64,000 nt of DNA from Escherichia phage UFV-AREG1, in the sequence record KX009778; one strand, given 5' to 3'. Shown here piece after piece: positions 51,718-57,821 of this stretch. The translations under genes and the position numbers were made by a program. Positions within the stretch are counted from its first letter, which is position 1, and every line of letters starts with the position of its first letter. The notes beneath the pieces are model-generated. The model ran no database searches. It worked only from the letters and a program-made list of their open reading frames with translations, and was not told the origin of the DNA.

Positions 51718-52203
51718 TTATTCCATTTCTACTATGTGCATGTTCTTTTTGCTATCAAAATATATGTTTTTAACTATTAACTCAGAATTAATTGGCAGTA
51801 AAAACTCTCTTTCATAATCTACCATGCAAAGATTATCATAAAGCTTGTTAAGCTTATCATCGTCAGTTTGACCAGATTCTTCAATTGCGATTAAATTTTC
51901 TAAAATGTCAATCATAGCAGTCGAATAGTCGAAAACGTTTGCATTTTTTAACACTACTAAAACATTAGTCATATAGCGTTCTGCCGCAAACGTTTCAGCT
52001 ATATGAGACTCACTGCTAAAGGAAGTTATTCTTTTAAATTTGATTCTCCTATTAACTTCAAACTTATAAGATAGCACTTCCTCTATTGTAAGTCCTCTAA
52101 AAAGTGTGTCTTTAATCTCAAGTTTGTCTTTAATGTAATCATTAACACGCTTATGATTAAAATCATTAATTTTGTTGCCAAGGCATTGCATTAAAATATG
52201 CAT
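51718..52203 (-). CDS. hypothetical protein
   Basis: 161-aa ORF flanked by stem-loop/promoter cassettes. Confidence 0.5.
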   Translation of the reverse strand: MHILMQCLGNKINDFNHKRVNDYIKDKLEIKDTLFRGLTIEEVLSYKFEVNRRIKFKRITSFSSESHIAETFAAERYMTNVLVVLKNANVFDYSTAMIDILENLIAIEESGQTDDDKLNKLYDNLCMVDYEREFLLPINSELIVKNIYFDSKKNMHIVEME

Positions 52204-52279: not shown

Positions 52280-52307
52280 AACTTTGTGGCGTCATTTTAA
52301 ACAAAAA

Positions 52308-52325
52308 GGGAGCCCGAAGGCTCCC
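52308..52325 (-). terminator. stem-loop with UUCG-type tetraloop (cassette)
   Basis: GGGAGCC-CGAA-GGCTCCC directly after NTase-fold gene stop. Confidence 0.55.
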
Positions 52326-52327
52326 TA

Positions 52328-53341
52328 TCATTTATAATAACTTCGGTGGTTTTCAAGATAAACCTTCTCAAGGAAATCATCCCAAAAACCCATGTCTACT
52401 TTTTGCTGCATACCGTTCTTAGAAGCTTCAATGGATGCTGCTTCTACTTGATCGACCACATCTTCCAAAAACTCTTGAACAGTTTTAAATGGATGTTTAC
52501 CCAGCTTCACGTCGAGAATAAACGGAGCATCTTGAAGTGGATAGACTAAGTCACCAGTTTTGTAAATTTCCAATAGTTGGAGTCCACCACGACAAGCATG
52601 ACTCAATGCTTTCCAGTCAATACCTTCATTCGCTTCAGCCTTACGAGCACGTTCACCGTATTCGGCATCAAGTTTATTCAAAGACTGCTTAAGCTCAATA
52701 AGAGAAAGTGTTGTCTGATATTTACGACCCAACACAGTGTAGAACGTTTGTGGACCGGTTTTCTCATGATTATGGAATACCCATTCACAGAATTCGTTCT
52801 CTGGAAGACGATGCTTAATATCTTCAACTTTAGTGCGACGTTGCTTAATGGAACCGTCTTCTTGGTAATCAACCCATTGCTCAGGGATTTGATTAACTAC
52901 TTTCAATACATCACGCAATGCGGCCAAACGAGAACCCTTAACACCATATTTAGAAGCTTGCTTGCGGACATATCCTAAATAGGATTTCATGTTAGTCGTA
53001 TAAAAACGAGAACGATTGTCTTGAATAAACTTCCATACATCAGGCAAATCAGATTTAACTACCAGTTCAGGTGGAGTGTGAAGCATATCCAATGCTACAG
53101 TTTCACCATCTGCTGCTAATTTAAAGAAATATTTAAGACTGTATAGTTCATGGTCAATATCATCTTTAGTGTTTTTAGATGATGTGTTGTTCGTGTTTTT
53201 ACTCATATGCTCTTTAACATTTCCGATAAGAATATCACGAGCAGGAGGAACAAAGATTTCTTTAAAATCTACATCAGATTCTGGAGTAGAAGTTCCATAA
53301 AGATGACTACCAAAATAGCTTTTCATTACTGTTTTCATCAT
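52328..53341 (-). CDS. nucleotidyltransferase-fold protein (Pol-beta-like NTase superfamily)
   Basis: 337 aa; N-terminal GS-x(9)-DxD signature (YFGSHLYGTSTPESDVDF) typical of minimal NTase fold; function unknown. Confidence 0.55.
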   Translation of the reverse strand: MMKTVMKSYFGSHLYGTSTPESDVDFKEIFVPPARDILIGNVKEHMSKNTNNTSSKNTKDDIDHELYSLKYFFKLAADGETVALDMLHTPPELVVKSDLPDVWKFIQDNRSRFYTTNMKSYLGYVRKQASKYGVKGSRLAALRDVLKVVNQIPEQWVDYQEDGSIKQRRTKVEDIKHRLPENEFCEWVFHNHEKTGPQTFYTVLGRKYQTTLSLIELKQSLNKLDAEYGERARKAEANEGIDWKALSHACRGGLQLLEIYKTGDLVYPLQDAPFILDVKLGKHPFKTVQEFLEDVVDQVEAASIEASKNGMQQKVDMGFWDDFLEKVYLENHRSYYK

Positions 53342-53790
53342 TCAGCCTTATATTCAATAACAGGACACACTTTAGCTTTACGGGCTTTTAAAAATTCGAC
53401 GATAATAGATTTCTTAGGTTGAATAGGAGGTAAACCTTTATACGCCCTATCAATATTTTCTACATGTAAAGCATAATCCTTTTTCCATTTATAATCTTTA
53501 TATTTTTCACGCAGTTGTGCAGGAATAACAAATGAACCAATAATAAGTAAAACAAGCAAAATGGCAAGTATAAATGCTGATGGAATAAGAGTCCATAAAC
53601 TACCAAAAATAAGCCAACGTTGTAAACTTTCTGCGCAGATAATAGTTAGACCTGCGAGTATAGTACATCCGAAAAAAAGAAACGAAAAATGTAGGAATAA
53701 CAATAGACCAAAAATACGCGCATAGTGTCTTAGGTCGTTTCCATTCATCATTAAACATTTTGAATAATTTATAGTGCCAAGAGCTTTCAT
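53338..53790 (-). CDS. membrane protein
   Basis: 150 aa, multiple hydrophobic helices. Confidence 0.45.
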   Translation of the reverse strand: MKALGTINYSKCLMMNGNDLRHYARIFGLLLFLHFSFLFFGCTILAGLTIICAESLQRWLIFGSLWTLIPSAFILAILLVLLIIGSFVIPAQLREKYKDYKWKKDYALHVENIDRAYKGLPPIQPKKSIIVEFLKARKAKVCPVIEYKAE

Positions 53791-53802
53791 TAATAATCAT
53801 AA

Positions 53803-54324
53803 TTATCCTTTCATTGAAGGTGTAACGGTTGTTAAATACTTAATCATAGCTTCAGCTTCTGATTTTGATAATGAAATTTCTCCATTGTTTTGACGAATAG
53901 AAATAAAATCCGGATGACGGTCACCGCCCGCTTTCAAAACACACATATAGGTATCAGTTTCATCTTCAATATTTGAAATAATTGAAGCAGTTCCGCATGA
54001 ATGCGGTTTTTGATAAATCAATACGGCTTTTCTTCCACCGTTTGACTGTTCATAAACTTTTAACACATCAAACAAATCACTTCTTTTATCAATAGCTAAG
54101 ATGTTATTTTCATCTTCAATGTTAAATCCTTCGGATACTTCATAAAGCGTCACCCATAAATCACCTATATCGATAGTAGCATTTACTTTTCCATGACTTT
54201 CAAGAGCACGGCAAATTTTCTTGATTTCGTCATAACTCATTTTAATAATATCATCTCCTTGAATAAGGAAGATGTCATTTTTAAATTCAACACGAATTAA
54301 ACCACTTTCACTTGAAATAAACAT
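53803..54324 (-). CDS. hypothetical protein, tandem paralog A
   Basis: 173 aa; C-terminus KYLTTVTPSMKG and GFNIEDENN motif shared with neighbour. Confidence 0.5.
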   Translation of the reverse strand: MFISSESGLIRVEFKNDIFLIQGDDIIKMSYDEIKKICRALESHGKVNATIDIGDLWVTLYEVSEGFNIEDENNILAIDKRSDLFDVLKVYEQSNGGRKAVLIYQKPHSCGTASIISNIEDETDTYMCVLKAGGDRHPDFISIRQNNGEISLSKSEAEAMIKYLTTVTPSMKG

Positions 54325-54330
54325 ATTTCC

Positions 54331-54888
54331 TCACTTTGAAATCATAGTTGGAATGACAGAATCAAGATAAGTCTTTAGCGCAATAGCTTCGTCTTTGGTA
54401 AATGTGACAATATGTGATCGAAAATCGTCAATTTGGCGAATAGTTAAGACATCTCCCTCTTCATAACATTTTGATACATTTAAAAGAGTTTCATCATTCT
54501 GATTGCAAGCGTTAGTAATAATAGCATTGCAATTTTTGAGCCATTTTAAACTATGTTTTCTTTCATTAGAATAATAAAAATATTTAATCTTAGCTATAAA
54601 ATTATCCCAATTATTAATTGATAAGCATATCGACTCGCTTTCAATATTAAATCCTGGGCATAAAGAATAAAAATGAATTTTATGCTCATCATTAATGTTT
54701 ACAATTTTATCAGTATAAGGTTTTTCAATTTGGGTTAAATGAATAATTTCGCTAGGCGTAAAATATAGCATATCGTCTTCTTGCGTCAAACGATACATAT
54801 TATTTACTTTTTCTATAGCCAATTCACCAAAAAGTGAACTAACTTCTAATACTAATCGTTTCATATTGATTCTCTTTGACTCACTCAC
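54331..54888 (-). CDS. hypothetical protein, tandem paralog B
   Basis: 185 aa; C-terminus TYLDSVIPTMISK and GFNIESES motif shared with neighbour. Confidence 0.5.
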   Translation of the reverse strand: MSESKRINMKRLVLEVSSLFGELAIEKVNNMYRLTQEDDMLYFTPSEIIHLTQIEKPYTDKIVNINDEHKIHFYSLCPGFNIESESICLSINNWDNFIAKIKYFYYSNERKHSLKWLKNCNAIITNACNQNDETLLNVSKCYEEGDVLTIRQIDDFRSHIVTFTKDEAIALKTYLDSVIPTMISK

Positions 54889-55023
54889 AATTACATACTC
54901 CTTTGAATAATATCAATAATATTGTTCACCAAATTATAAGTAAACATTGGGTAATTATATTGAATCATCACATACACAACAAACAAAACTTTCATTCTCT
55001 TCTCCTTGGCAGTTGGCAAAATT

Positions 55024-55053
55024 ACTATACCATAACCTTGCCAACTTGTAAAC
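55024..55053 (-). promoter_or_regulatory. early promoter
   Basis: minus strand GTTTACA-17-TATAGT. Confidence 0.5.
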
Positions 55054-55218
55054 CATTAAATGACGTTTTCAATAAAATTCTGGAGTTTTGTGTGAGCATC
55101 AACCATGATTTTCATTTCTTCCTTTGCGAAAGCTATACCTCTTTCCCGAGAAGAACGCTCATAGTCAGAAACTGCATTAGCATATTCTTCAATTAGCTTC
55201 ATTAAAAACATCTGCTTT

Positions 55219-55413
55219 TCAGTTTTCATTATTCCACCTAATCATTTCAAGATATTGAACTAACTTAGCTTTGGATTTATCCAAATCCTTTTTAGCCGCT
55301 TCTATACCATCGTATGAATATCCTTCACAATGCTCAACTGCCAATTGGTATGAATCTATTTCAATATCACGTGCTAATTTAATGATTTTTTCAAACTGTT
55401 CACGTGTTAGCAT
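55219..55413 (-). CDS. hypothetical small protein
   Basis: 64-aa ORF. Confidence 0.4.
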   Translation of the reverse strand: MLTREQFEKIIKLARDIEIDSYQLAVEHCEGYSYDGIEAAKKDLDKSKAKLVQYLEMIRWNNEN

Positions 55414-55415
55414 AC

Positions 55416-55619
55416 TTAAACTCTCGTATTATGATCGATAATTTCATCAAGAAACATATCTAAAGCTTCTACAGCATTATCAACTTTAGCTTCAAGTTCT
55501 TCAGCGCCTTTATTTGCAATGCCTGCCGAAAACCAAGCAAAGTCACTAAGTTCCTCGTCTGCTTTGCGAATTAAAGCTACCAATTCTTTAATTTTATCTG
55601 CTTGTTCGATACTAATCAT
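55416..55619 (-). CDS. hypothetical small acidic protein
   Basis: ORF 55416-55655; start moved to [17 protein letters not shown] overlap with upstream stop. Confidence 0.4.
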   Translation of the reverse strand: MISIEQADKIKELVALIRKADEELSDFAWFSAGIANKGAEELEAKVDNAVEALDMFLDEIIDHNTRV

Positions 55620-55807
55620 TATTCCACCACATATGAAAGAGAGAATATTGCACACGCCATATGAGTTGCAGCTTCATCACACATATCATAACGTTTCTTA
55701 AGAAGTTCTACAAGCTCTTCACTGGTAACTTCATCCATGTCGACGAAAAAATCACCATTAATGATGACGTAGATATTTCCTTCTTGATTAAGTGCTTCAA
55801 TTTTCAT
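55619..55807 (-). CDS. hypothetical small protein
   Basis: ORF 55619-55852; start moved to MKIEALNQ after GAGGAG RBS and promoter 55836-55865. Confidence 0.4.
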
Positions 55808-55880: not shown

Positions 55881-55898
55881 AGTCTCCCGAAGGAGACT
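55881..55898 (-). terminator. stem-loop with UUCG-type tetraloop (cassette)
   Basis: AGTCTCC-CGAA-GGAGACT, preceded by same GTAAACCGGTAAAATGAAAAA context as at 14823-14843. Confidence 0.55.
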
Positions 55899-57429: not shown

Positions 57430-57618
57430 TTAGTCCTTAGTTAAATTTTCTAAATATGTTTCTAAATCATTTTCAGCTTTATCGATAGATTTTACTAATT
57501 CGTAGTATGTTTCAGCATCTCCATAATCCGAAGCCAATTCAAAAGATAAATCTCGTTCTAAACTAATAATTTCGCTGATTAAAAATCGTATTTCATTCTT
57601 TTGTTCGCGAGTAATCAT
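57430..57618 (-). CDS. hypothetical small acidic protein
   Basis: 62-aa ORF. Confidence 0.4.
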   Translation of the reverse strand: MITREQKNEIRFLISEIISLERDLSFELASDYGDAETYYELVKSIDKAENDLETYLENLTKD

Positions 57619-57821
57619 AAGGAATCTATATAATCAATAAGTTCTTGTTCTTTATCGTCTAAATCTTTACACAGTTCTTCATATTCATCGGTATTAAAAG
57701 GACCGCATTCATCACAAACTTTTTCCAATTCATTGTTTTTATCCATAACTTCATGAATAAGAGAAAACAGTCGGTCTTTTTGTTCTTTACTTAAACTCAT
57801 AACCATGTCACCTTTAAGCAA
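57615..57821 (-). CDS. hypothetical small acidic protein
   Basis: 68-aa ORF. Confidence 0.4.
   Translation of the reverse strand: MLKGDMVMSLSKEQKDRLFSLIHEVMDKNNELEKVCDECGPFNTDEYEELCKDLDDKEQELIDYIDSL

Follow-up and report, generated by a model that had tools for sequence, protein, structure and literature searches.

Adjacent MobD.1-family paralogs in the T-even phage UFV-AREG1: an anciently diverged gene pair with a possible role as acidic protein-binding adaptors

Two adjacent genes of Escherichia phage UFV-AREG1, here called ORF A and ORF B, encode paralogous members of the MobD.1 (Y05I) family that diverged long ago. ORF A is the orthologue of T4 MobD.1 (UniProt Y05I_BPT4) by both sequence and position, and ORF B is a deep paralog of the RB32ORF097c type. 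Our tentative proposal, which we favor without counting it probable, is that both may act as dimeric acidic protein-binding adaptors or decoys. The pair as such is an already known, annotated entity, both of its domains being curated in Pfam, and the observation that had singled it out is correct but ordinary. The DNA analyzed (the window) is a 64,000-nucleotide stretch of sequence record KX009778. Its relevant features are the following.

55881-55898, minus strand: intrinsic-terminator-like hairpin, after rI.-1 and upstream of the mobD.5-mobD.2a cluster of small ORFs
55024-55052, minus strand: T4-early-type sigma-70 promoter-like site (GTTTACA, 17 nt, TGGTATAGT)
54891-54995, minus strand: mobD.2-like small ORF, 34 aa, hydrophobic, with a strong AAGGAG ribosome-binding site
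54331-54888, minus strand: ORF A, the MobD.1 orthologue, 185 aa, GTG start
~54559-54861 and ~54334-54558, minus strand: N-terminal and C-terminal domains, respectively, of ORF A
53803-54324, minus strand: ORF B, the deep MobD.1 paralog of RB32ORF097c type, 173 aa, ATG start
~54031-54324 and ~53806-54030, minus strand: N-terminal and C-terminal domains, respectively, of ORF B
53338-53800, minus strand: small membrane-protein gene (PHROG 944, RB69ORF104c type), split into 53600-53800 and 53338-53790
52328-53341, minus strand: NrdC.11, RlaP-family Pol-beta nucleotidyltransferase (PF10127), with a 4-nt overlap with the membrane-protein gene
52307-52326, minus strand: intrinsic-terminator-like hairpin closing the unit (8 bp, 6 of them GC, then a T-run)

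The two genes, of 173 and 185 aa, lie exactly where the earlier note had placed them, on the nrdC side of rI: nrdC.11 flanks the pair on one side and rI/rI.-1 on the other. The genome is that of a Tequatrovirus, the surrounding 2 kb being 96-98% identical to many T-even phages of Escherichia, Shigella, and Yersinia. The GTG start of ORF A coincides with the annotated T4 start (an alternative ATG at 54864 would give a 177-aa product), and only 6 nt separate the two genes, with a GAGG ribosome-binding site for the second overlapping the stop codon of ORF A. Both ORFs contain the GFNIE(D/S)E motif and the C-terminal consensus that had been described for them, in the form of GFNIESE and TYLDSVIPTM in ORF A and of GFNIEDE and KYLTTVTPSM in ORF B. 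A third family member was not found in the 64-kb window.

The alignment check that had been proposed for the pair returned a similarity far above chance, and the paralogy was borne out. ORF A and ORF B are 28% identical from end to end (BLASTP E = 8e-11), with a Smith-Waterman score of 112 compared to 31.5 ± 5.3 for shuffled sequences (n = 2000, maximum 58; z = 15), and in shuffles of the halves taken separately both the N-terminal (z = 10) and the C-terminal (z = 6.4) parts scored above chance. The same two Pfam domains are present in both proteins, with E values of 1e-21 to 1e-40: PF24449 (T4_y05I_N) at 137.7 bits in ORF A and 113.5 bits in ORF B (gathering score, 24.9) and PF24448 (T4_y05I_C) at 74.6 and 83.4 bits, respectively (gathering score, 27). 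The BLASTP and shuffle values and the common domains refute a chance or compositional resemblance, to which we assign practically no probability. PHROG 1502 likewise covers both proteins over their full length.

ORF A has ~86% protein identity to T4 MobD.1 (tblastn) and occupies the orthologous position downstream of mobD.2 and upstream of nrdC.11, with the same flanking mobD.2 and promoter-like site as in T4. ORF B has the two-domain architecture in common with the T4 MobD.1 family but, at 28% identity to ORF A, forms its own clade. T4 lacks ORF B; the slot that ORF B and the small membrane-protein gene fill in the window is taken in T4 by the HNH homing-endonuclease gene mobD. The GenBank record of phage T6 labels the membrane protein "similar to RB69ORF104c ... 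replaces mobD" and ORF B "similar to mobD.1; RB32ORF097c," and the paralogy was therefore already known. With genes near-identical in hundreds of sequenced Tequatroviruses and a curated Pfam family, the pair alone brings nothing new.

Prior functional annotation is sparse. In the literature, "mobD.1" was found in only one review, where it labels an insertion site, and a search for "y05I" gave nothing relevant; neither NCBIfam nor PADLOC had a match for ORF A, ORF B, or the membrane protein. Pfam names PF24449 and PF24448 "y05I-like putative transcription factor" domains. In many RefSeq records, MobD.1 orthologues (e.g., in EcNP1, L001 5037-5570) and T4 mobD.4 bear the product name [quoted passage not shown] which appears to have spread from mobD, the gene symbol for mobile endonuclease D. 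The only Pfam matches of ORF A are the T4_y05I domains, and the only one of the mobD.4-type ORF is DUF7438. Both the "putative transcription factor" label and the RefSeq molybdopterin name of MobD.1 are poorly founded and should be read with caution.

In a neighbor-joining tree, ORF B and P0010, a metagenomic allele 55% identical to it, fell outside all MobD.1 orthologues from several genera with 100% bootstrap support. ORF B is therefore an old paralog, and the tree rejects a recent tandem duplication; the term "tandem paralog pair" used in the earlier note holds as to paralogy but not as to the recent duplication that "tandem" implies. Its description of the family as diversifying also stood in part, that is, between lineages but not within the genus. 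Within Tequatrovirus, dN/dS was 0.18 for ORF A and 0.10 for ORF B, compared with 0.09 for NrdC.11 next to them; both ORFs are thus real genes, maintained by purifying selection, and positive selection within the genus is unsupported by these values. Between lineages, N-terminal versus C-terminal domain identity was 41-44% versus 65-67% for ORF A and 37% versus 79% for ORF B, and by these figures divergence is much faster in the N-terminal than in the C-terminal domain. The C-terminal motif is kept across genera despite an overall identity down to ~30%. Domain-level mosaics were also observed (P0011, P0037, and the RB27/IME340 allele), as was an A/B chimera. In genomes where the MobD.1 homologue is only ~30-46% identical, or is represented by the C-terminal domain alone, NrdC.11 is still 69-84% identical.

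MobD.1 was detected by tblastn in 727 of 50,697 phage records, belonging to Tequatrovirus, to Mosigvirus (~46% identity), and to the VR5/SP18-type phages (~34%). ORF B at an identity of at least 90% was present in ~432 phage records, all those listed being of Tequatrovirus type, while 47 records have a T4-type mobD at its site instead; RB69 carries MobD.1 and the membrane gene and has no ORF B. An exhaustive HMM search of 1.84 billion cluster representatives gave only 24 matches, and because all the credible ones are T4-like phage proteins, the family has no cellular homologues. A BFVD structure search likewise returned MobD.1 family members only. On the strength of these searches, the MobD.1 family is a tiny one, restricted to T4-like phages. 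The content of the site itself varies, with mobD in T4, two extra ORFs in T6, and a tk.1-like gene in RB69 and IME340, in agreement with its earlier characterization as part of a hyperplastic (variable) region.

The genes downstream of the promoter-like site likely form one transcription unit, in the order mobD.2, ORF A, ORF B, membrane protein, NrdC.11, and terminator, as read from the signals in the DNA. The promoter-like site at 55024-55052 is nearly identical in T4, T6, and EcNP1, the DNA of the mobD.2-like ORF is almost invariant between the window and these three phages, and there are 2 nt between its stop codon and the start of ORF A. No MotA-box middle promoter was found inside the unit or elsewhere between the two strong terminator-like hairpins. 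The membrane-protein gene is split in the window into ORFs of 66 and 150 aa in different frames by one extra T in the T-run at 53672-53678, which has seven Ts here and six in EcNP1 and L023 and is interrupted in phage T6. Databases contain many truncated versions of the protein, and the T-run may be an indel hotspot or else contain a sequencing error here. Two cysteines, in the motifs SLC-x-YFW and K-x-CP-x-IEF, are near-invariant in the membrane-protein family (PHROG 944), which also reaches into Aeromonas phages; the genes upstream of it there are unrelated. Members of the family adjoin the RlaP nucleotidyltransferase in enterobacterial T-evens (window 52328-53790) and an RNA ligase of the DRB0094 family in Aeromonas phage Aes012 (L060 2501-4095). 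In bacteria, RlaP enzymes extend the 3' ends of damaged RNA by 1-2 nucleotides (PMC12776372).

The C-terminal domain also exists on its own. Stand-alone proteins of 65-107 aa, from T4-like phages of Yersinia, Serratia, and Erwinia and from metagenomes, keep the signature TK-x-EA-x-AL-xx-YL-x-SVIPTM, and we infer that the ancestral unit of the family was this domain (repeat III in the structural description below), which carries the YL-x-SVIPTM signature. At 31 of 37 NrdC.11 loci from IMG/VR, a gene for the C-terminal domain, either full-length or stand-alone, ends within 21 nt of the start of the membrane-protein gene or overlaps it, and what lies between the membrane gene and nrdC.11 differs from locus to locus. 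Exceptions to this linkage include T4, with MobD.1 and no membrane gene, and L044 and L049, with a membrane gene and no C-terminal-domain gene. The membrane protein of L044, of 245 aa, has an N-terminal extension that was considered as a C-terminal domain and rejected, and in Aeromonas phages 65 and Aes012 the genes upstream of the membrane protein are not detectable C-terminal-domain homologues. One IMG/VR T4-like contig (L045 2021-2463) has two stand-alone C-terminal-domain genes in tandem, of 82 and 65 aa, upstream of the membrane gene, in what looks like an independent duplication within the MobD.1 family.

The AlphaFold2 model of ORF A, built from a 27-sequence alignment (mean pLDDT, 85.2), predicts a beta4-alpha-beta4-alpha arrangement for residues 11-108 and beta5-alpha for residues 113-178. 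The model of ORF B arrived independently at the same N-terminal topology, with a pLDDT of 82-92 in the N-terminal domain, and in both predictions this topology is PC4-like/PUR/Whirly. Each protein would thus consist of three beta-sheet-plus-helix repeats, of which repeats I and II are predicted to fold jointly into one PC4/PUR/Whirly-like domain. The three-repeat reading is adopted because repeat I and the C-terminal domain are homologous: hhalign scored the two at 25.0 (E = 3e-5), a value reached in none of 200 column shuffles (maximum, 17.4). Repeat II gave no significant hhalign score against the other repeats, and the Pfam family DUF7189 matches repeat I and the C-terminal domains weakly. 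MobD.5, considered as a fourth, single-repeat relative, was rejected with hhalign scores of 12-14, within shuffle noise. Searches against known structures and families were negative: Foldseek found no significant match in the PDB, with poor TM-scores; querying the PDB by sequence, with either protein or the family profile, gave nothing (for the profile, no matches at E <= 10); and none of the 27 members matched the PUR, Whirly, or PC4 families of Pfam at E <= 1. The predicted architecture resembles the three-repeat arrangement of Pur-alpha (PDB 3k44), with a third repeat homologous to repeat I. In Pur-alpha, repeats I and II form an intramolecular domain and repeat III an intermolecular dimer (PMC7549692). 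A testable Pur-alpha-like three-repeat model with a single-repeat ancestral core, together with the conserved link between the C-terminal domain and a small membrane protein encoded close to an RNA-repair-type enzyme, is a by-product of this analysis that offers a concrete start for assigning function to uncharacterized T-even early genes.

In 26 of the 27 MobD.1-family members the pI is 4.2-5.8, and the net charge of the N-terminal domain ranges from -3 to -12. The alignment shows no conserved basic residue on the beta-strands, those conserved being Q, E, D, and N, and thus a basic/aromatic nucleic-acid-binding surface on the beta-sheets is not seen at the sequence level, the only level at which it was sought. 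The acidity of the members checked is therefore evidence against the "transcription factor" label. Because of this acidity and the lack of a conserved basic beta-sheet residue, we favor an adaptor or decoy over a classical nucleic-acid-binding transcription factor. Repeat III would pair with a second repeat III, giving homodimers and, where both genes exist, A/B heterodimers as well. Such intermolecular pairing is most likely because a repeat of this fold, when alone, requires a partner; the argument is drawn only from the stand-alone single-repeat proteins, with repeat III of Pur-alpha as the analogy. The conserved C-terminal domain would then be the module for dimerization or docking, possibly for the membrane protein encoded alongside, and the fast-evolving, exchangeable N-terminal domain may contact a variable target. 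That the genes stay adjacent is weak evidence for such functional coupling, the phages compared being related and largely syntenic.

Somewhat less likely, in our judgment, is that ORF A and ORF B are true single-stranded nucleic-acid binders, acting for example on damaged tRNA or mRNA ends with the RlaP protein NrdC.11 (in RNA repair or counter-defense) or modulating transcription. The PC4/PUR/Whirly-like predicted fold points in this direction, as does the Pfam name, for which the fold and the RNA-repair-type neighbor are presumably the reason. However, none of the PUR, Whirly, or PC4 families is matched in sequence, and SsgA, which has the same fold, is annotated as a cell-division protein and is not known to bind nucleic acid. 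PC4-like domains nevertheless generally have nucleic-acid-binding surfaces in common (PMC7549692), and there is a phage precedent in ChmC, a Whirly-fold RNA-binding protein (PMC11077065). This precedent cuts both ways, since binding by ChmC depends on lysine and arginine patches (PMC11077065); MRP1/MRP2 (of the Whirly/MRP/SsgA group) and ChmC bind RNA through the phosphate backbone or such patches, whereas the MobD.1 family has no conserved basic patch, its N-terminal domains being negatively charged throughout. ChmC is moreover an essential homotetramer from another phage group, the chimalliviruses, and has no sequence similarity to the MobD.1 family. Overall acidity, for its part, is compatible with nucleic-acid binding and does not exclude it. 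Genomic context also speaks for nucleic acid as the ligand: the pair shares a predicted transcription unit with an RlaP-family enzyme (PMC12776372), whose RNA 3'-end activity fits nucleic-acid binding better than an adaptor or decoy, and the membrane-protein family adjoins an RNA ligase in Aes012.

That the pair is redundant, decaying cargo of the variable region, with ORF B a filler lost by T4 at the mobD insertion, is a very improbable explanation, even though several observations are in line with it. A genome-reduced T4 remains viable after losing nrdC.11-mobD.3 (PMC9825161), and in T2 (L019 1940-3022) both MobD.1 and the ORF B homologue are frameshifted, the ends of each being in frame and the middle out of frame, which in sequence terms implies two frameshifts per gene; the break is also seen in P0046, an independent T2 protein record. 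Deletion-fusion proteins are found in databases (P0012, P0047, and P0049), and the downstream membrane gene is itself frameshifted in the window. Set against this, ORF B is an intact 173-aa gene in the ~432 records mentioned above, the dN/dS values of 0.10-0.18 are like that of the neighboring enzyme, and the C-terminal motif has persisted across genera at ~30% overall identity. ORF A and ORF B are thus accessory genes, as had been proposed, dispensable in the laboratory on the evidence of the viable T4 deletion mutants and the frameshifted T2 copies.

The adaptor/decoy reading concerns the two proteins themselves. A wider and improbable reading, if less so than decay, takes in the neighboring genes: a C-terminal-domain protein, the two-cysteine membrane protein, and RlaP would together form a membrane-anchored RNA-repair/counter-defense device of enterobacterial T4-like phages. 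In that case MobD.1 and ORF B would have, in their PC4-like N-terminal domains, interchangeable recognition heads, for damaged RNA or a host ribonuclease toxin, and the paralogs would heterodimerize via repeat III, leading to a wider specificity. If this were true, the conserved unit would be the cassette and not the paralog pair, and MobD.1 would be only the second known protein type, after Pur-alpha, to join intra- and intermolecular PC4-like domains.

Two further observations were made in the vicinity of the pair. Between the nrdC.11 terminator and nrdC.10, the window has a 161-aa ORF (51718-52203, minus strand) that is not at this spot in T4; it is 94% identical to a T2 CDS annotated as "RNA polymerase ADP-ribosylase" and has no Pfam match. 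In addition, DUF7438 scored above the cut-off in five small ORFs on the minus strand (55056-55229, 55219-55413, 55416-55655, 57430-57618, and 57615-57821), corresponding to the mobD.2a, mobD.3, mobD.4, tk.1, and tk.2 types, which are paralogs of ~60 aa flanking rI/tk. Their relationship is seen by profiles only, BLASTP between two of the ORFs being not significant, and this five-copy family represents a larger expansion than the ORF A/ORF B pair.
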